Part shown: piece after piece, positions 24,176 to 56,145 of the stretch
Numbering within the stretch: the first letter of the stretch is position 1
Layout of the letters: every line of letters starts with the position of its first letter
Origin: Patescibacteria group bacterium
Lineage (GTDB): Bacteria > Patescibacteriota > Minisyncoccia > Phycocordibacterales > Phycocordibacteraceae
Direction: 5' to 3'
DNA: 64,000 bases
Assembly: GCA_040388985.1 (NCBI GenBank)
Contig: JAZKAU010000003.1
Span: 24,557-88,556, forward strand
Made by a program: the position numbers and the translations under genes
The notes under the pieces: generated by a model
What the model saw: only the letters and a program-made list of their open reading frames with translations
Databases searched by the model: none
Told to the model about the DNA's origin: nothing

Positions 24176-24733
24176 TTAATACCGATACCTATGCAGTTCG
24201 CAGCGCTTATTTTTATAGTCGAGGATAGTGCGGGCGACCTGCGCCCAGAAGCGCGCGGAGTGATTATGTTCGCGCACGTGGCAGAGCTCATGGACGATAA
24301 GATAGTCAGCGAGGTCTGGCGGCAGGTGCGCGATGCGGTAGTTGAAGGATAGGTTGCCCGCTGCCGAACAGCTTCCCCACCGCGTCTTCTGATTGCGTAT
24401 CGAGAGCGTGCCGTACGGAAATTCGTAGAGCGCGTTGAAATACTGGAGGCGCTCGCGAGCGAGCGCTCGCGCAGCTTCCACCGCTTCCTTGTATCCTCTC
24501 GTGCCGCGGCGCAACCGCGGCAGTTCTATTCCCTCCTCTCGCTTACCTGAATTCTTACGCTTCCTGAACGCCTCTCGTGCTTTCTCTATCCAGGCCTCCT
24601 TCTCCCGCACCCACTTCTCCACCGCTCTCATACCGACTCTCGCGGGCTTCGTGACCACAACCCGTCCGTCCGGAAACACCGAGATGCGCAGGTGCCTTGC
24701 TCGCGCACTCTCCCTAATTTCTAAGCCTTCCAT
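24176..24733 (-). CDS. YgjP/DUF45-family zinc metallohydrolase (M48/WLM-like HExxH)
   Basis: Motif HELCHVREHNHSARFW. Confidence 0.65.
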   Translation of the reverse strand: MEGLEIRESARARHLRISVFPDGRVVVTKPARVGMRAVEKWVREKEAWIEKAREAFRKRKNSGKREEGIELPRLRRGTRGYKEAVEAARALARERLQYFNALYEFPYGTLSIRNQKTRWGSCSAAGNLSFNYRIAHLPPDLADYLIVHELCHVREHNHSARFWAQVARTILDYKNKRCELHRYRY

Positions 24734-30075: not shown

Positions 30076-30918
30076 TTAGACCGAGGATGCGTAATTCCGT
30101 ATGGCCAATTCGATGATGCTAGCGTCAGCTCCTACGCTTGCACCGAGGCTGCGCGGAGCGAGTATCCTGTGATACTCGAATCCAGGATATAAGTTCCTCA
30201 CCTTCTTTATGTCGTTATTACTCAAGAGCACCTTTCCGCCTCTTGCCTGCAGAGATCTCACGAAATCCGCGAGGTTGATCCTGTCCATTTCTGAGAATGT
30301 CTCAGGAGTATATTGAACGAAGCTTGTCCTTTTTATCGGATCGTAGCAAGGATCAAGATAGATAAAATCTCCTGACGATATATGAGGTACGATCTCCCTA
30401 TAATCTTGATGCACTATATCTACTCCCTGCAAGAGCCTGCTGGCTTCCAATATGACCTCTCTTGAGAAGACTTCCGCTTTCTTATATCGTCCATAAGGGA
30501 CATTGAATTCATTCTTAGAGTTCACTCTGAATAGACCGCTGTAGCAAGTCTTGTTCATATATATGAAGGCTGCGGCTCGCTCGACTCCTTTAAGGGCTTT
30601 CAGGTTGAATTCCTCCCTCGTCTGATAATAAAATTCTTCCGAATCTCTCTTCTTGAACCTTGACAGAGCGGTTAGCAATCCCTTCGGATTATCTCGTACG
30701 GCTTGATAAGTGAGCACGAGATCAGCATTAGCATCCGATATCAGGGAGAAATCCGGATTGTATTTCTGCTTTACGTAGAAGAAGACAGATCCGCCTCCGA
30801 GAAAAGGCTCGAAGTATCTTTCTATGGTCTCCGGAAAGAGAGTGTCAAGCGTATCGAGAATCCTGCGTTTTCCGCCTGCCCACTTCAGGAATGTCGGTAT
30901 GTTTAAGGTGTTCTTCAT
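30076..30918 (-). CDS. dam: Dam-family N6-adenine DNA methyltransferase
   Basis: The protein is collinear with E. coli Dam, matching FLKWAGGK, EPFLGGGSVF, YYQTREEFN, MNKTCYSGLFRVNSKNEFNVPYGRYKK and a DPCY variant of DPPY. Confidence 0.85.
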   Translation of the reverse strand: MKNTLNIPTFLKWAGGKRRILDTLDTLFPETIERYFEPFLGGGSVFFYVKQKYNPDFSLISDANADLVLTYQAVRDNPKGLLTALSRFKKRDSEEFYYQTREEFNLKALKGVERAAAFIYMNKTCYSGLFRVNSKNEFNVPYGRYKKAEVFSREVILEASRLLQGVDIVHQDYREIVPHISSGDFIYLDPCYDPIKRTSFVQYTPETFSEMDRINLADFVRSLQARGGKVLLSNNDIKKVRNLYPGFEYHRILAPRSLGASVGADASIIELAIRNYASSV

Positions 30919-32045
30919 CTTGTGCTTAATCCGGATTTCTCCATCAGATCTTTATACAGATCTGATTGGCCCTGTCCTCCCGGTATATATCTGCTCTTCG
31001 TAAAGTCATCCTGCTTCAAGTCTATCCTAGCGAAGACCTGTTGAAAATCCTCTTTGCTTGCAACCTTGCCAGGAGTATCGAATGAAAGATAGACGTCTCT
31101 CATGAATCTCATGAGAGCCACGAAACCTGTAGATTTATTCAATATCATCTGTACTCTCACCTCATTCCAAGCATCGGGCCACTTCAGCGACACCGCAGAG
31201 AAATAATTCCATACAATCTGAGCTATCTCCGCATCCTTTTCCTCGAGGAAGAGGTTCCTGAAAATCAGCTTGCTCGCCGAATCCCCTTCCGCTCTCTTCG
31301 GTACTCCTCCTCTCTTGTATATATCCCTATCAGTCATCGGATTCAGAGACAGGTACTTTAATAAGTATTCGACAAAAGTCGCTTGAGTTATCGTCTCTCT
31401 CTCTCCATCCTCTGCCACCCCCAGAATCTTGACTTTTCCTTCAAAAGGGCTCCCTTCTTTCTCGTTCAGGGCGCGTACGATCTGATGTGCGGTCTTCTGC
31501 GGACTTCTTGAAGTCGCGAAGGCGAATAAGTCCGCCACCAGCGACTTATTCACCTTCGTCTGAGATTTGTTTATCGTTGCAAACAATATCGCCTGGTCTT
31601 CAAGATCAATGTCGACGAAAATAGCGACGTTTGTCTCAAAACTAGAGGGTCGAGGACTGGCTTTTTCGAATCCAGCGGCTCGATGTTGTCCGTCGAGTAT
31701 CTTCGCAATCTCTCCATCCCTTCTAATCCGCATCCTCGAGCTCTTCTCGTCGTATTGAACGTTCGTGGAAGAGACAGAGAGTATTATCGCAGTCGGGAAA
31801 GCCGCGTCGACCAGATTCACGTATCTTGCAATCTCCTTGACCCTGGAGGCTGAGAGAGGTCTCTGTATACCGATGTATTTCTCAATCTCAGTCTCATTCC
31901 TCTCTCTATGACGGATGTCGCTATAGGAAATATCTACCAGATCTTGCATCTGCATTACGCCCATGTAAAAATCGCCTATAGGCTGCCTTACCTTGATAGA
32001 CTGGAATTCCACCCACTCATCCTTTAATGAAATTTTCATAGGCAT
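30915..32045 (-). CDS. DGQHR-domain protein (DndB-like, ParB/Srx fold)
   Basis: An exact ILDGQHRAAG motif together with an upstream IGIQRPLSASRVKEIARYV block. Its ATGA start overlaps the Dam gene, and its stop overlaps the downstream membrane gene. Confidence 0.75.
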   Translation of the reverse strand: MPMKISLKDEWVEFQSIKVRQPIGDFYMGVMQMQDLVDISYSDIRHRERNETEIEKYIGIQRPLSASRVKEIARYVNLVDAAFPTAIILSVSSTNVQYDEKSSRMRIRRDGEIAKILDGQHRAAGFEKASPRPSSFETNVAIFVDIDLEDQAILFATINKSQTKVNKSLVADLFAFATSRSPQKTAHQIVRALNEKEGSPFEGKVKILGVAEDGERETITQATFVEYLLKYLSLNPMTDRDIYKRGGVPKRAEGDSASKLIFRNLFLEEKDAEIAQIVWNYFSAVSLKWPDAWNEVRVQMILNKSTGFVALMRFMRDVYLSFDTPGKVASKEDFQQVFARIDLKQDDFTKSRYIPGGQGQSDLYKDLMEKSGLSTR

Positions 32046-32808: not shown

Positions 32809-34095
32809 TTAGTATGATTTCAGTCTTCGGGATTTTTCATGGGTCCGGATCTTTTCAAGAGCCTTCGCCTCGATCTGGCGGATGCGCTCGCGGGTGACGC
32901 CGAACTCCTTCCCTACTTCCTCGAGCGTGTGGTACACGCCGTCAAGGAGACCGTGGCGCATCTCAAGGATCTTGCGCTCCTTAGGGGAAAGATCATCGAG
33001 AATGTCGCGGACCTGTTCGGTGAGGATGCGTTCGGATGATTCCTGGACCGGGGACGGAATCTTATCGTCTGCGATGAAGTCGCCAAGCGTCGAATTCTGG
33101 TCGTCGTCAGAGCCTACGGGATTCTCGAGCGAGAGGGTGTCCTGATTAATCTTCTCGATCTGGTAGATCTTATCTACTTCGACACCCATCTCGACTGCCA
33201 CTTCTTCCGGTTGCGGATCGCGGCCGAGCGTCTGCGCGAGGCGGCGGGATACCTGCTTGTACTTGGCGATGGTCTCGACCATGTGCACCGGGATACGGAT
33301 GGTACGGGACTGATCGGCAAGCGCGCGAGTGATGGCCTGGCGAATCCACCAGGTAGCGTAGGTCGAGAACTTATAGCCCTTCTTCCAGTCGAACTTGTCG
33401 ACGGCCTTGAAAAGGCCGATATTACCTTCCTGGATAAGGTCGAGGAGGGTGAGGTCGGGTGAGCGTCCGACGTATTTCTTGGCGATAGACACGACGAGGC
33501 GGAGGTTGGAACGGGCGAGGATGTTGCGCGCCTCGTCGTCGCCGCTCTCAATGCGCTTGGCGAGCTCCTTCTCCTCGTTCCCGGTCAGAAGCGGGTACTG
33601 ACCGATCTCACGCAGGTATATCTGGATGGAGTCGTAGCTTCCGCTATCGCGGCTCTTGATGTTGCGTCCGGCGAGGTACTCGTCAGCCTGATCCTCGAGC
33701 ATGCCGCCTTCGAGGATGTCGATGCCGGAGATGGTGAAGCGCTCATAGAGCTCATCGAGGAAGGTGACGTCGTCCTCGATGTGCGGGAATTCGCGGAGGA
33801 TCTCGCTGTACGTAATATAGCCGCGCTCCTTTCCTTTCTGGATGAGGCGTTCGGCCTTGTCGGTGCGGTCGCTTGCGGCCTTCGCCTTCACGCCGGTTAC
33901 GGCCTTACGTACGACATTCATCGCGCGGGCGTTCTTAGCTACCTTCTTGGGTGCAGTCTTCTTAACCGCCTTCTTTACGGCTTTCTTGACTGCCTTCTTT
34001 ACTACTTTTTTGGTAGTCTTCTTAACAACTTTCTTCGGAGCTGCCTTCTTTGGTGCAGACTTTTTCTTCGGAGCTGCCTTCTTCTTTATAGCCAT
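32809..34095 (-). CDS. rpoD: RNA polymerase sigma-70 factor RpoD with a Lys/Ala-rich histone H1-like N-terminal tail
   Basis: Regions 1.2-4 are present ([46 protein letters not shown]). The N-terminal 50 aa consist of [11 protein letters not shown] repeats. Confidence 0.9.
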
Positions 34096-50974: not shown

Positions 50975-51661
50975 TTACCACCCGGTCTTCTGAAGCGCGT
51001 TCTGCGCAGCTGCCTGTTCTGCTTCTTGTTTAGATTGACCCTCGCCGGTCGCAATCTGTTCCTTACCGAGGAAGACGCCTACCGTGAAGCGCTTATCGTG
51101 ATCCGGGCCTTTCTCCTGCATGGTCGTGTAGGTGGGAGTGGTACCGCGCTTGTCCTGAGCAAGCTCCTGGAACTTGCTCTTGGCGTCCTGCCAGCTTCTC
51201 TGCTGGACGACGGTGTCGATCTTCCCGTAGAGATGCTGCGCAAGGAAGGCTTCGGCAGCGTCGTATCCCTGATCGAGATAGAGAGCGCCGAGAAGCGCCT
51301 CGAAGGCGTTCGCAAGGATGATCTGGCGCGCGCGGCCGGTATCCTTTGACTCGCCTTTTGAGAGCAGCAGCATGGAGTTGAGTCCGAGCACCTCGGCAGT
51401 ATCGGCGAGCGAATAGGTATTCACGAGCGCGGCGCGGAAAGCCGTGAGCTCTCCCTCTGGCTTGTTCGGATATTTATCAAAAAGGAAGCGCGTGACCGCA
51501 AGCTCAAGCACGGCATCGCCGAGAAACTCAAGACGTTCGTTATGCGCCTTCGAACTCTTGTTCTCGTTCAGATACGAACGATGCGTCAGCGCCTCTTCCA
51601 GGAGCGCCATATTCTTGAACGTGAGGCCGAGCGTGCGCGCGTGCGTATGAAAGTCGGTCAT
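50975..51661 (-). CDS. rnc: Ribonuclease III
   Basis: Signature ERLEFLGDAVLE and a C-terminal dsRBD. It sits upstream of smc. Confidence 0.9.
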   Translation of the reverse strand: MTDFHTHARTLGLTFKNMALLEEALTHRSYLNENKSSKAHNERLEFLGDAVLELAVTRFLFDKYPNKPEGELTAFRAALVNTYSLADTAEVLGLNSMLLLSKGESKDTGRARQIILANAFEALLGALYLDQGYDAAEAFLAQHLYGKIDTVVQQRSWQDAKSKFQELAQDKRGTTPTYTTMQEKGPDHDKRFTVGVFLGKEQIATGEGQSKQEAEQAAAQNALQKTGW

Positions 51662-51746
51662 AGATACGTATATGGTAGCAGAACTACCGTACTAAAAGGA
51701 AGCGCCCGGAGGAGCAGGAGATGTTCTCCAGGGCTCCTTCGGGCGT

Positions 51747-52013
51747 TCATGCGCTCATGGTGTAGCCTTCGCCGACCAGAACGTCGGGAGTCAACGCGTC
51801 TTCCGATGACGCCGGCTCCTGATGCTGCGTCCTCCGCATATGGTCCAGAACGGCCAGGATGCCGGCACCCATGAAGAAGACGAGGGATATCGACACCGTA
51901 GTGGCGGCGTTGACCAGATTCTCGTGCGGGTAACTGCCGGCCAGCGCGAGGCCGCCTGCAACACCGACGAGCAAGACGCCAATTGACAAAGAGATCAATG
52001 AGGAATACTTCAT
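51747..52013 (-). CDS. Hypothetical small membrane protein
   Basis: 88 aa with 2 TM helices. Confidence 0.35.
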   Translation of the reverse strand: MKYSSLISLSIGVLLVGVAGGLALAGSYPHENLVNAATTVSISLVFFMGAGILAVLDHMRRTQHQEPASSEDALTPDVLVGEGYTMSA

Positions 52014-52084
52014 CGCCTAATCCTCCGAGGACAACTAGAAAATCTATACCATGTTTATCCGGTACGGCAAAATGTTTGATTGAT

Positions 52085-52117
52085 GTTCCCTGTCTAGGTG
52101 ACACCTAGACAGGGAAC
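52085..52117. promoter_or_regulatory. Perfect 33-nt palindrome (16-bp arms)
   Basis: gttccctgtctaggtgacacctagacagggaac lies in the 5' region of the 51747..52013 gene. It may be an operator or a hairpin. Confidence 0.4.
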
Positions 52118-52176
52118 GAAAAAGGGCCGCCCGAAGACGACCCCTTTTGCGAGTACCTGCAAGCGGTACTCGTCGG

Positions 52177-52539
52177 CTACGCAGCAGCCTTGAGGCTCTC
52201 CAGGAACTCCTCGATGGGCGGTGGCGTGGGAACCGTGCTCGCGCTGAAGTCGATGGCGTTCTTCCTAAGCAACGCCATCATCCAATCAGCTACGCGGGTA
52301 GCCCAGATGTGATTGCCCTTGATGAACATGGGGTATCGACTGGCCGGAGCACGGTCGAGCTCCGTCAGCTCCATGGCAGTCATCTTGTCGGGCCGTTCCG
52401 GCAACTCCTTGATCGAGTATCCGCCGCTCCCCATAGGACCGAATGTGTTGTCGGCATTCTTGATGAGGAGCACGAGGCTATCCTCGATGTCGGTCTCGTT
52501 GTCCGTGCCAACAAGAATCAATGTACAAGGCTTCGTCAC
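52177..52539 (-). CDS. Hypothetical protein
   Basis: 120 aa ORF, followed by the hairpin cgagtacctgcaagcggtactcg immediately downstream. Confidence 0.4.
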   Translation of the reverse strand: MTKPCTLILVGTDNETDIEDSLVLLIKNADNTFGPMGSGGYSIKELPERPDKMTAMELTELDRAPASRYPMFIKGNHIWATRVADWMMALLRKNAIDFSASTVPTPPPIEEFLESLKAAA

Positions 52540-52652
52540 CGCTTTCCTCCCTACTTATGATCAGGTTCGGCATCAGCTATCTGATGCCTTCGCTTAGCTT
52601 TTTACGCGCGTAATGACAGACTGTCAACGCAGGATTCTTAAGGCGCGATGTA

Positions 52653-53579
52653 TTAAAAACGAGCTTCGAGGGGCTGCGTCGCTCCTGCGCGCGCCTTATC
52701 GAGGAGCTTCTGCACGGCGCTGGTCACGATAGGCAGCATATCGTCATAGAAATTGAGCTCGAGGATGTCGGGCAAGCGGAACCATTTCGCGTCGTCGAGT
52801 CCCCCGCTCTTCTTGAGCGTGATGGTCTCGAACTCCGCATGTACGAGGAAGAACCAGACATGCTTGCGGACCTTTCCCTTCTCGGGATGCGATGCGACGT
52901 ATTCGTTCTCGCCGACCATCTCTTCTACCTTGCCTATAAGCCCGAGCTCTTCCTGCACGACGCGCGCGACGCCTTCCTCAGGCGAAGGGTCGGTCTCGAT
53001 ATGGCCTTTAGAGAGCGTCCAGCGGCCGAAGACGTCGTGCACGAGAGCAAGATAGTATTGGCCCTGGTGTTCAGCGTAGACGATGGCGCCGCCTAATTTC
53101 TCGAGTGGCAGATCCTCGCGCTTCACGCGCTCCTTCTTCCCGACCTCGTCCTTGCCGGGCTCGCCCATCTCCTTATAGACGGCTCCGAGGACACCGTTGA
53201 CGAAGCGGCCACTCGAGTCGCCGCCGAAGATCTTGGCAAGCTCGATGGCTTCGTTTATGGCGACTTTCGCAGGAACCTGGGTGCGGTCAGCGAACAATAA
53301 TTCAAAAAGCCCGATGCGCAGAATGTTGCGATCAACCGGCGCGATCTTATCGAGCGGCCAGTCAGGGGCGGCTTTCGTGATGACGAGGTCTAGGTCAGGA
53401 CGCTTAGCGAGTACGCCCGTAATGAGAGCTTCCATGAAGGCCTTGTCCGAATCTTCCCCGCCGAACTCCGCGATATTGCGGGCGAGCATATCGGGCACCG
53501 CCGATTCTTCACTAGCTGAAGTATCCCACTCGAAGAGCGTCTGGAGGACTACGGAACGTGCAAGGTGGCGGTTGGCCAT
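52653..53579 (-). CDS. nusB: NusB transcription antitermination factor fused to a C-terminal NUDIX hydrolase domain
   Basis: The N-terminal 140 aa are NusB-like (ARSVVLQTLFEW, FVNGVLGAV). The C-terminus has a Nudix-box-like stretch KGHIETDPSPEEGVARVVQEELGL that aligns to GX5EX7REUXEEXGU but carries RV in place of RE. Confidence 0.8.
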   Translation of the reverse strand: MANRHLARSVVLQTLFEWDTSASEESAVPDMLARNIAEFGGEDSDKAFMEALITGVLAKRPDLDLVITKAAPDWPLDKIAPVDRNILRIGLFELLFADRTQVPAKVAINEAIELAKIFGGDSSGRFVNGVLGAVYKEMGEPGKDEVGKKERVKREDLPLEKLGGAIVYAEHQGQYYLALVHDVFGRWTLSKGHIETDPSPEEGVARVVQEELGLIGKVEEMVGENEYVASHPEKGKVRKHVWFFLVHAEFETITLKKSGGLDDAKWFRLPDILELNFYDDMLPIVTSAVQKLLDKARAGATQPLEARF

Positions 53580-53640
53580 ATGAAAGAGCTGGTATAGCTA
53601 GAGTAGCAGTAAAGGCGAGAAAGGTGCAACCGACCACACG

Positions 53641-53804: not shown

Positions 53805-54323
53805 TTATGCCTTGTAACGACTTTGCCAAGCCTCTAATTCAGTAAAAATTGAGTCTGTGCTATTCTCTGGCTTACGCTGAAGAATGGCATTTGCATTTCG
53901 CATGCAGTATTGGACCTCATCCATGTTATTTTCTTCCGTGTAGTATTTAAAACTATCCAGGATATCGACCGCTTTCACTACAAGAGCATCTTCTCCATTC
54001 TCGGCACAACGCTTGATAAGCTCTTCTGTCCTACTGGGCTCATCTGAAATCGAATCGTCTTTGGTGCAGGCACGAACGAGCCTGAGCACAGTATCTCCAA
54101 ATCCATCGGTTAGTTCTTTCTCTGTCACCTCGGTATCCTCAAGAATGTCGTGCAGTACTCCTGCCAAGACCATGTCCCGTGAATAGCCCTTTTCATACAA
54201 ATATACGCCTACCCTAATTCCATGAAATAGCACGGGCTTTCGGGTCCCTTCATGAGATATGGGCATTACTTGGGAAAGCAAGCGAATTGCTTTTTCAAAT
54301 TCAATATTGAGAGATTGCTTCAT
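53805..54323 (-). CDS. HD-domain protein resembling a small alarmone ((p)ppGpp) hydrolase
   Basis: SpoT/Mesh1-like HD motif HGIRVG...AGVLHDILEDT. The gene is AT-rich. Confidence 0.65.
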   Translation of the reverse strand: MKQSLNIEFEKAIRLLSQVMPISHEGTRKPVLFHGIRVGVYLYEKGYSRDMVLAGVLHDILEDTEVTEKELTDGFGDTVLRLVRACTKDDSISDEPSRTEELIKRCAENGEDALVVKAVDILDSFKYYTEENNMDEVQYCMRNANAILQRKPENSTDSIFTELEAWQSRYKA

Positions 54324-54541: not shown

Positions 54542-54910
54542 CTAGACTCCGCCGCCGAAACCGGAACGGCTCTTGGCCTTCCCGAGCGTCATGCGTCCGA
54601 TGAGTCCCTGCTTCTTCTCAGTCGCGTTGATCTCCTTCTCTGCGTGGACAGGTTCCTTATATCCTTCAGCGTGCTCGTGGATGTGCTCCTTCTTATGCTT
54701 TGCCTTGGTCTTCTCTTTGTCGGCCTTCGCCTTCATTTCCTTCTTAGGAAGGATCTGCTTGCCGCGATACATGCCGGTGGTCTCGTCCAGGCGATGTGGA
54801 AGGCGGAGCGCACCGCTATCCTTATCGGTAACGATGGAAGCCGCCGAGAGCGCGTGGTGGCTGCGGCGATTCTTAGTATGGGAACTGGTGTGGCGCATTC
54901 GTACTGACAT
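54542..54910 (-). CDS. Hypothetical Lys/His-rich protein
   Basis: The minus-strand ORF has protein-like composition, and the terminator hairpin cgaaaaccgcgccctaatgggcgcggttttcg lies at 54386..54422 on the same strand. Overlapping plus-strand ORFs look spurious. Confidence 0.35.
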
Positions 54911-54917
54911 ATACGGA

Positions 54918-55535
54918 CTACCCTACCACAGGGACCCCGGAAACGGAAGGTAGCCGGTCTGGGCGGATGAACGTGGCACGGTGGATGTCGCAGAGGCCGT
55001 GAGCTCGTAGAGCGTCCATATGGGCCTTCGTACCATACCCTTTATGCTGCGCAAAGCCGTATTCTGGGTACGTATCCGAGACCTGTACCATGAGCCGATC
55101 GCGGGTTACCTTCGCGGCGATGCTTGCCAGCATGATGGCCGGAACGAGTCCGTCGCCGCCTATGACAGTTTCTTGCTCATAGATTTCCGGCGCTATGAGC
55201 GCGCCGTCGAGCCATACCTTCCCTCCCGACGTATCCGGGAGCAGTGGCTTCAGTCCGCTCGCTATTGCTTCGCGTATCACGACCGCTATCCCGCGCTGAT
55301 CAATATCCTGCGCGGTCCGTAGCTTCACGACGTACGTGAGGTCGCCTGCGGCGACCCGCTCCTCAAGGAGCGCGAAGAGTGCTTCCCTTTTCTTCTCGGA
55401 CAGCTTCTTTGAATCATTGAGCCCTGGGAATGCAGCCAAGAAGTCGAATCCTTCAGGCGCGCGCACTATTCCCACCGCGACGGGCCCTGCAAGCGGACCC
55501 CGTCCTGCTTCATCTATTCCAACTACCATTCTCAT
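54918..55535 (-). CDS. rnhB: Ribonuclease HII
   Basis: [19 protein letters not shown] and the conserved DSK, with a start at the internal Met. Confidence 0.85.
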
Positions 55536-56145
55536 ACTCTTCAAATCGAAGTTCGGGCCATAGGGTATACCAGCCCTTCGCAGCCGCACGTTCTTTCGTC
55601 CAGGTCGAAAGCTCCGGACGAGTCGGTCGCACGATACCTTCTACCAGATCCTGTATACCCCAAGGTGCGCAGAGCTTGAGACTCCCGTCAGACGCAATCC
55701 GTATTCCGACGGCAGTCGCCGTCTCTACCCAATCGGCAATACCATCAGCTGCAGAATCATACGGTTTACGTTCATGGGCGCGTGCTGACCAAAGGTGCAT
55801 GCGTGCCTGGTTCTTCACTTCAAAAGTTACTGATGGTATTTGTTCTTGGAATTCATGGGCCAGACGTTCTTCCTCCTCCGAAACCGGATTCGACTCATCT
55901 TTTTGAATACTTCCAACTAGCTGTGCCTCGGGAACGCCGTATGAGGAAAGCGGTTTCCAATATGCTACGTCGATATCATTCAATGGCACCGCTTTACCCG
56001 TACCAAAACGAGCTTCCCAGACCGTATTGCGTAGGAACCCTGCTCCAATCCACCAGTCGCCGAGATCCGCTGCTGCCACTACCTCGAGTATCCGCATCTT
56101 TACTGCATCATTTCTGAATAGATCGAGGATCTGTTGCTTAGTCAT
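55510..56145 (-). CDS. Nucleotidyltransferase-fold family protein (uncharacterised)
   Basis: An hG[GS]-like GAGFLRN followed by NDIDV suggests a minimal nucleotidyltransferase fold. This is a weak call. Confidence 0.4.
   Translation of the reverse strand: MTKQQILDLFRNDAVKMRILEVVAAADLGDWWIGAGFLRNTVWEARFGTGKAVPLNDIDVAYWKPLSSYGVPEAQLVGSIQKDESNPVSEEEERLAHEFQEQIPSVTFEVKNQARMHLWSARAHERKPYDSAADGIADWVETATAVGIRIASDGSLKLCAPWGIQDLVEGIVRPTRPELSTWTKERAAAKGWYTLWPELRFEEYENGSWNR

Follow-up and report, generated by a model that had tools for sequence, protein, structure and literature searches.

A NusB protein joined to a degenerate Nudix domain in Patescibacteria

Few transcription factors are as conserved or as well studied as NusB, which is viewed as a protein of one domain. 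NusB and ribosomal protein S10 (NusE) jointly bind BoxA RNA and thereby nucleate assembly of the rRNA antitermination complex. Canonical NusB (E. coli 3D3B/6TQN; Thermotoga 1TZT; Aquifex 3R2C) is about 140 residues long and is encoded in the context ribH-nusB. In RsmB/Sun, the 16S rRNA 5-methylcytosine 967 (m5C967) methyltransferase, a NusB-like N-terminal RNA-binding domain is joined to an rRNA-acting enzyme fold. Here we describe a nusB gene from a 64,000-nucleotide stretch of a very small, uncultured Patescibacteria group bacterium (positions 24,557 to 88,556 of contig JAZKAU010000003.1, assembly GCA_040388985.1; the whole stretch is called the window below). Unlike canonical NusB, its product continues for another 170 residues, comprising a linker and a Nudix domain, and its gene context is rpmF-nusB-rnc; unlike in RsmB/Sun, the partner is a Nudix fold and not a methyltransferase. 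The gene, designated nusB-nudix, and its parts are as follows.

52653-53579, minus strand: nusB-nudix gene, 308 codons plus stop (open reading frame (ORF) list and translation)
53166-53579, minus strand: NusB domain, residues 1-138, all-helical (Pfam, TIGR01951, AlphaFold2 model)
53106-53165, minus strand: Lys/Glu-rich flexible linker, residues 139-158 (low model confidence)
52692-53105, minus strand: Nudix-fold domain of the Ap4A/Ap6A-hydrolase type, residues 159-296 (Pfam, profile search, Foldseek)
52938-53006, minus strand: degenerate Nudix box G192-L214, GHIETDPSPEEGVARVVQEELGL (direct reading and alignment to 3I7U)

A continuous NusB-Nudix reading frame

The N-terminal 138 residues align throughout with canonical NusB. 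They matched the Pfam NusB family (PF01029) over residues 7-136 (E=9e-34, 117 bits) and the NCBIfam nusB equivalog TIGR01951 over residues 4-137, with 122.9 bits against a cut-off of 88.35; the NCBIfam models of RsmB matched this half weakly, far under their cut-offs (61 bits versus 319). The alignment with E. coli NusB runs end to end (residues 3-132 to 5-128), the core KVAINEAIELAK...FVNGVLG is kept, and the aromatic position of E. coli Tyr18 is occupied by Phe16. An AlphaFold2 model of the whole protein, built from a 38-sequence alignment, had a mean predicted local distance difference test score (pLDDT) of 91.7 and a predicted template modelling score of 0.57. In this model NusB forms seven helices at a pLDDT of ~95, and the alpha/beta/alpha Nudix domain also scores above 90. 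Foldseek superposed the NusB half on M. tuberculosis NusB (1EYV) with a template modelling (TM) score of 0.85. An earlier note on this DNA, made from the sequence alone, had read one 308-amino-acid (aa) ORF, without giving a strand, as a complete NusB-like domain followed by a Nudix fold, and Pfam, TIGR01951 and Foldseek bear this out. The 64-kb window contained no second NusB-like ORF and no other related Nudix ORF, and the 12-kb loci of 80 relatives likewise gave no second NusB-like ORF. From its sequence we infer that the protein is this organism's NusB and that it would bind S10 and BoxA.

Between the two domains the model is of low confidence, with a pLDDT of ~50 around residues ~140-155 and below 50 at residues 144-148. 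The linker opens with the motif GEPGKD (residues 139-144, 53148-53165, minus strand), which recurs in many members of 30-55% identity; this conservation suggests a short linear docking motif.

The ORF has an ATG start at 53579 and no internal stops. Its conservation was determined in two samples: the 120 best database matches (81-100% identity, from many independent assemblies) and the best 80 loci from species-representative genomes, beyond which further candidates exist. Both Pfam domains were present in all 120 homologues, and all 80 loci encoded an uninterrupted protein covering query residues 1 to ~295. Because the same continuous ORF occurs throughout both samples, the fusion is real and no artefact of assembly or frameshift; the hidden stop or frameshift for which the earlier note had allowed is absent. 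A merger of nusB with a separate Nudix hydrolase gene by sequencing or assembly error thus has next to no probability, and no support for it turned up. The fusion is moreover retained in members of as low as 30% identity.

The Nudix half alone was also searched against 1.84 billion cluster representatives (50% identity), yielding 823 matches at E<=0.001 and 142 at E<=1e-10. NusB was carried by 54 of the best 150 of these representatives. Most of the closest matches that appeared to be Nudix only begin within NusB or at the linker, and the two that were checked are fragments ending at a contig edge, one of them followed by rnc, which again argues against a merger.

Among the best 80 loci, named sources were Kaiserbacteria, Adlerbacteria, Nomurabacteria, Zambryskibacteria, Parcubacteria and Paceibacterota; the titles 'Saccharibacteria' and 'Bacillota' that also occur resemble placeholder labels. 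The NusB-Nudix fusion is therefore genuine and is the form that NusB regularly takes in a large lineage of Patescibacteria (Paceibacteria/Parcubacteria). The Paceibacteria are a very large lineage with reduced genomes. The architecture had been called non-standard in the earlier note; it does differ from the NusB of model bacteria, but it is the form of a whole lineage and no oddity of one genome. NusB would thus be permanently joined to an Ap4A-hydrolase-type Nudix domain across this lineage, with catalytic residues that appear dispensable in evolution (see below).

The sequences are public, although the fusion is apparently undescribed. A 100%-identical NCBI protein (P0001) is named 'transcription antitermination factor NusB [Patescibacteria group bacterium]', and the public labels of the fusion proteins read only 'NusB' or, once, '8-oxo-dGTP diphosphatase', so that annotation misses the fusion. 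No description of a NusB-Nudix fusion was found in the literature, including a review of the Nudix clan (PMC5389931), in a search that left out subscription-only papers and the InterPro architecture tables.

The Nudix domain: descent, box and pocket

The C-terminal half scored as Nudix with a profile hidden Markov model, as the earlier note had expected (Pfam PF00293, residues 167-281, E=8.5e-12, 45.7 bits against a cut-off of 21.1). With a profile of the Nudix domains of the fusion family, the top match was the Ap4A (diadenosine tetraphosphate) hydrolase of Aquifex (3I7U, aq_158; E=3.4e-20), followed by Chlamydia CT771, T. thermophilus Ndx1 (a hydrolase of Ap6A, diadenosine hexaphosphate), the C. 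elegans and human Ap4A hydrolases, and Dcp2. For the Nudix half, Foldseek gave 3I7U (TM 0.88, root mean square deviation (rmsd) 2.1) and Ndx1 (TM 0.84), and also listed BdRppH and NrtR.

The diadenosine polyphosphate (ApnA) hydrolases (3I7U, Ndx1 1VC8, CT771, C. elegans 1KTG/1kt9, human NUDT2) are thus the best matches in both sequence and fold (TM 0.84-0.88), and they have in common with the fusion a W-x-x-x-K-G motif ahead of the box and conserved Tyr and Lys positions. Unlike the fusion, which has Pro and Val for the GX5E and RE glutamates and is joined to NusB, they are stand-alone proteins with a complete box. BdRppH, an RNA pyrophosphohydrolase, was a weaker match (TM 0.66). NrtR, among the top Foldseek E-values, is likewise a bacterial Nudix protein with a degenerate box, an ADP-ribose sensor that controls transcription; it differs in its winged-helix DNA-binding partner and its ADP-ribose-type Nudix domain, and it superposed poorly (TM 0.67, rmsd ~10). 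As the nearest profile and Foldseek matches are of this type, the sequence and model comparisons indicate that the domain descends from the ApnA-hydrolase/RppH-like branch, and not from NudC (NAD caps) or MutT (8-oxo-dGTP). Of the substrates proposed in the earlier note, Ap4A is therefore in line with the nearest solved relatives, which indicate Ap4A/ApnA and 5'-polyphosphate RNA ends, but NAD caps and 8-oxo-dGTP are not.

The box, GHIETDPSPEEGVARVVQEELGL, was aligned with KGNIEPGEKPEETAVREVWEETGV of 3I7U. The pattern GX5EX7REUXEEXGU is incomplete at two positions: Pro198 (52986-52988) stands for the GX5E glutamate and Val207 (52959-52961) for the RE glutamate. The earlier note had correctly seen the valine but missed the first loss. 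Arg206, Glu210, Glu211 and Gly213 remain unchanged. None of the 120 close homologues has Glu at position 198 (Pro in 77, Ala in 36, others in 7), and position 207 is Val in 110 and Ile in 10. Over the family as a whole the box is variable. Among 54 deep representatives of the fusion, Glu198 was found in 40, Glu207 in 14, Arg206 in 39, Glu210 in 33 and Glu211 in 47; in 38 more distant full-length relatives without NusB the corresponding numbers were 36 for Glu198, 29 for Glu207, 37 for Glu210 and 36 for Glu211. Glu207 was present in 33 of the 80 species and the full G..E..RE..EE..G pattern in 26. Both glutamates are missing throughout the clade of the window protein (>=74% Nudix identity), the canonical box is present in the nearest sister lineages (66-73% Nudix identity), and on a neighbour-joining tree the state of Glu207 changes at least 17 times across the family. 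These counts suggest that the box glutamates are evolutionarily dispensable in the fusion family; non-catalysis itself would be a further step.

The loss of catalytic residues did not free the domain from selection. Within the clade lacking both glutamates the two halves are about equally conserved, with 75.8% identity to the query for the Nudix half and 78.2% for the NusB half. Asp182, Trp187, Thr188, Lys191, Glu211, Tyr227, Trp266 and Tyr278 are invariant in all 80 species, and Lys239 (79/80), Lys236 (77/80) and Arg238 (73/80) are nearly so. Several of these align with ligand positions of Ap4A hydrolases. In the alignment to the C. elegans enzyme, Lys191 corresponds to Lys36 and Tyr278 to Tyr121; in that enzyme Lys36 presumably touches phosphate, and Tyr76 and Tyr121 presumably sandwich the adenine. 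Lys191 sits within WTLSKG and was compared with the phosphate-binding Lys of the W-x-x-P-K-G motif. Tyr227 aligns with a Tyr of the Aquifex, Thermus and Chlamydia enzymes and lies 13 residues past the box, as it does in those bacterial enzymes. Nudix Ap4A hydrolases share a stacking Tyr or Phe that follows the box by ~17 residues (PMC2425470), and Tyr227 is probably the adenine-stacking Tyr.

The overall explanation towards which we lean, if only slightly, is a genuine NusB with a Nudix module that binds a nucleoside-polyphosphate moiety without efficient hydrolysis. For the module in the clade of the window protein, a role in binding and not in efficient catalysis appears moderately probable, because two box glutamates are lost and yet the domain is under purifying selection, as are its Lys and Tyr residues at positions aligned with ligand contacts. 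In this scheme NusB would have gained a flexible linker and a Nudix domain whose ancestors were enzymes of the Ap4A/Ap6A-hydrolase or RppH-like type. Its closest functional precedent is CF Im25 (NUDT21), the 25-kDa subunit of human cleavage factor Im. This part of an RNA-processing machine has a Nudix fold that lacks two of the four box glutamates, and it binds Ap4A and ATP without hydrolysing them (PMC2425470). The two losses are not the same (second and fourth glutamates in CF Im25, with hydrophobic residues there; first and second here), and CF Im25 is a dimeric eukaryotic protein of mRNA 3'-end processing that has no NusB fused to it and is not a close sequence relative.

Several points weigh against binding without hydrolysis. 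Glu210, Glu211 and Arg206 persist, and the nearby Glu195, Asp197, Glu201 and Glu202 could conceivably rescue metal binding and leave residual activity. With a canonical box in about one third of the species, the common function of the family could be catalytic and the clade of the window protein an exception. The loop alignment behind the equivalence of Tyr227 is ambiguous for the C. elegans enzyme, and the invariant Trp187, Trp266, Tyr/Phe243 and Gly164 are probably residues of the fold core that are uninformative on the ligand.

These points bear on the view that the domain is an active enzyme, an RNA 5'-pyrophosphohydrolase or Np4A/Ap4A decapping hydrolase that NusB tethers to the antitermination complex. 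Such an enzyme would license the processing of nascent pre-rRNA through conversion or decapping of its 5' end. The nearest relatives being Ap4A/Ap6A hydrolases, with BdRppH matched too, would fit such an enzyme, as would the retained Arg206, Glu210 and Glu211, the full canonical box in 26 of the 80 species (the nearest sister lineages included) and RNase III as operon partner. However, the RE glutamate is essential in mutagenesis of MutT and RppH, and here neither it nor the GX5E glutamate survives in any of the 120 close homologues, which have non-acidic residues at both positions. Nor is any box glutamate invariant in the 54 deep representatives, and Glu207 flips at least 17 times. CF Im25, with two glutamates missing, shows no hydrolysis (PMC2425470). 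We give an active enzyme a rather low probability. The active hydrolase for RNA 5'-end or nucleotide surveillance put forward in the earlier note is weakened for this protein, two of four box glutamates being gone in all 120 homologues and no catalytic residue being invariant across the family; its alternative, a degenerate non-catalytic Nudix domain used for binding, fits the sequence data better.

The Nudix fold could also serve purely for docking, without nucleotide binding, as an interface to a partner such as RNase III, RNA polymerase, S10 or a further Nus factor. SuhB offers a parallel, being an enzyme fold that moonlights in the rRNA antitermination complex of E. coli. Dispensable catalytic residues, the conserved GEPGKD motif of the linker and the tight linkage to rnc would agree with this, and non-enzymatic Nudix proteins that work via protein interaction are known (PMC5389931). 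Essentially invariant Lys191, Lys236, Lys239, Tyr227 and Tyr278 in 80 species would be unexpected for an unused pocket, and these residues align with phosphate- and base-contact positions of Ap4A hydrolases. A pure docking module therefore seems unlikely to us.

Under the preferred reading, nucleotide binding without efficient hydrolysis, the fusion suggests that rRNA antitermination and processing include an accessory function not recognised so far, namely nucleotide or RNA 5'-end recognition. With its active-looking and dead-box variants the family also forms a natural series that can be compared biochemically.

A BoxA-like element at the start codon

BoxA is known as an autoregulatory element of Nus-factor genes. 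In E. coli (suhB) and in other gamma-proteobacteria (rpsJ, ribH-nusB) a BoxA-like sequence lies less than 50 nucleotides (nt) from the start codon of a Nus-factor gene, and BoxA-mediated repression by translational inhibition has been published (Baniulyte et al., PMC5725501). At nusB-nudix a similar arrangement was found.

53579-53589, minus strand: BoxA-like element GCUCUUUCAUA, whose final base is the A of the start codon
53600-53608, minus strand: extended -10-like promoter element TGcTACTCT, read from the sequence, 10 nt upstream of the BoxA-like element

The element matches the BoxA consensus GYTCTTTAANA (PMC5725501) at 10 of 11 positions, this consensus being gamma-proteobacterial and possibly not that of the host. 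Within the window alone, near-matches to BoxA occur at chance level (4 versus 4.2 expected), and a search with the E. coli BoxA likewise gave no more than chance would; a near-match at 32852-32862 lies inside a sigma-factor coding region and was rejected as a chance match. Across the related loci the motif is enriched at this one start codon: G[CT]TCTTT was present within 30 nt of the nusB-nudix ATG at 24 of the 80 loci, versus 0.6% of 481 other ORF starts, and the relaxed form [GA][CTA]TCTTT at 35 of the 80 loci, versus 1.7%. Rates in random windows were similar to those of the other ORF starts. The 80 loci are related, so these counts are non-independent events; the intergenic sequence that flanks the motif is not conserved across loci.

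At 23 of the 35 motif-bearing loci the motif is preceded by a TATACT-type hexamer, whose end is 7-14 nt away. The motif would therefore lie at about +1 to +5, counted from the predicted start, of a near-leaderless mRNA. The composite of hexamer and motif occurred 28 times in 957 kb (both strands), 24 times at the start of nusB-nudix and twice where a small inserted ORF begins directly ahead of that gene. In these two loci (L004:5836-5857 and L011:3187-3208) the extra ORF (MPDTLQGI...) is inserted ~145 nt upstream of nusB-nudix. Because the composite there precedes the inserted ORF, the element appears to mark the start of the transcription unit, and not nusB itself.

Variants of the upstream motif were seen as well. 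One is GUUCAUUA. In ~13 more distant species (L032-L045, L049, L050, L066) G(N)UCUUU is replaced by AGUUCAUUA or AGUUUAGUAC within 20 nt before the ATG, which may be a lineage-specific variant of BoxA.

By analogy with the gamma-proteobacterial genes, the position of the element over the start codon suggests that the protein represses its own translation. The arrangement differs from the published cases in that the element overlaps the start codon and would form the 5' end of a near-leaderless mRNA, and the departure of the upstream motif from the gamma-proteobacterial consensus at positions 8-9 counts against its identification as BoxA. An rRNA leader for comparison was absent from the material at hand: Rfam and tRNA scans of the window gave no match, and a pattern search for universal 16S/23S motifs found none in the window and 85 loci (957 kb). 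A consensus promoter and terminator scan around nusB-nudix was uninformative. The conserved BoxA-like element may nevertheless serve as a handle for finding the targets of Nus factors in uncultured organisms.

The location of the element also bears on the ligand of the Nudix module. As likeliest ligand we tentatively propose the 5'-(p)pp or nucleoside tetraphosphate (Np4) end of BoxA-bearing nascent transcripts, because the relatives of the domain act on ApnA and 5'-polyphosphate RNA ends, a 5' end close by would be within reach of the flexible linker, and the mRNA of the gene itself appears to carry its BoxA-like element at the 5' end. The alternative is sensing of free ApnA/Ap4A or of nucleoside triphosphates. 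With either ligand, 5'-end or nucleotide recognition would be added to the NusB-S10-BoxA module.

One specific form of the first proposal, which we consider rather doubtful, is a bipartite reader of the 5' end: NusB (with S10) would grip BoxA a few nucleotides from the transcription start, and the Nudix domain would clamp the adjacent 5'-triphosphate or Np4 cap without cleaving it. The RNA sequence considered for this model was GCUCUUUCAUAUG... If it were true, loading of the antitermination/rRNA-folding complex and repression of the protein's own mRNA would hinge on 5'-end chemistry. This would give bacteria a counterpart to cap-binding that is linked with transcription elongation and RNase III processing, and where the box is intact the module would trim the 5' end as well.

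Genomic neighbourhood

Across the best 80 loci the genes rnhB, rpmF, nusB-nudix, rnc and smc form a conserved co-directional row. The genes that flank nusB-nudix in the row are located in the window as follows.

54542-54910, minus strand: rpmF, ribosomal protein L32 (Pfam Ribosomal_L32p)
50975-51661, minus strand: rnc, RNase III (Pfam Ribonucleas_3_3, E=6.9e-38, and dsrm)

The rnc gene lies directly downstream on the same strand at 79 of the 80 loci (the 40 smallest gaps being 2-74 nt), and rpmF lies upstream on the same strand at 75. In the most divergent members (30-35% identity) rnc abuts or overlaps nusB-nudix, with a 14-nt overlap in locus L081 and a 9-nt gap in locus L083. RNase III cuts pre-rRNA, and the linkage fits a possible role of the fusion protein in co-transcriptional handling of pre-rRNA.

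The most divergent fusion member (P0247, 30% identity) is encoded by L081:5001-5900 (GCA_054047225.1, JBPLFY010000016.1). Both invariant Trp residues of its Nudix domain are in-frame TGA codons (TTT GGT AAA TGA ACT TTG CCA = FGK-W-TLP). The AT-rich organism of L081 evidently reads UGA as Trp, since it is invariant Trp codons that are in-frame TGA.

In the window the row is broken by lineage-specific genes: an HD_4 protein, an NTP_transf_6 protein and two small ORFs. The HD_4 protein (172 aa; RelA/SpoT-type HD hydrolase family, Pfam E=2.4e-11) is encoded at 53805-54323, minus strand, between rpmF and nusB-nudix. It was rejected as a functional partner, since no counterpart was found in any of the 80 related loci. 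A 1-kb insert (51662-52652) parts nusB-nudix from rnc, two genes that adjoin in most relatives, and contains ORFs at 52177-52539 (120 aa) and 51747-52013 (88 aa), both on the minus strand; neither had a Pfam match, or a tblastn match across the 80 loci. The NTP_transf_6 nucleotidyltransferase (211 aa, 55510-56145, minus strand, Pfam E=1.9e-45) overlaps the 5' end of the listed rnhB ORF. It is absent from the 80 related loci and represents a lineage-specific insertion. L32 itself is 122 aa long in the window, where Pfam covers only residues 6-54 and the rest is a Lys/Glu/His-rich C-terminal extension; L32 of locus L083 has 69 aa.

Two further ORFs of the window were noted at a distance from this row. 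The 428-aa ORF at 32809-34095 (minus strand) is by its motifs a primary sigma-70 factor, with ~60 N-terminal residues of AKK/VKK repeats that form a basic tail like that of histone H1. The 376-aa ORF at 30915-32045 (minus strand) contains a DGQHR motif in its translation and resembles DndB-like/DGQHR-domain proteins of DNA modification and defence.

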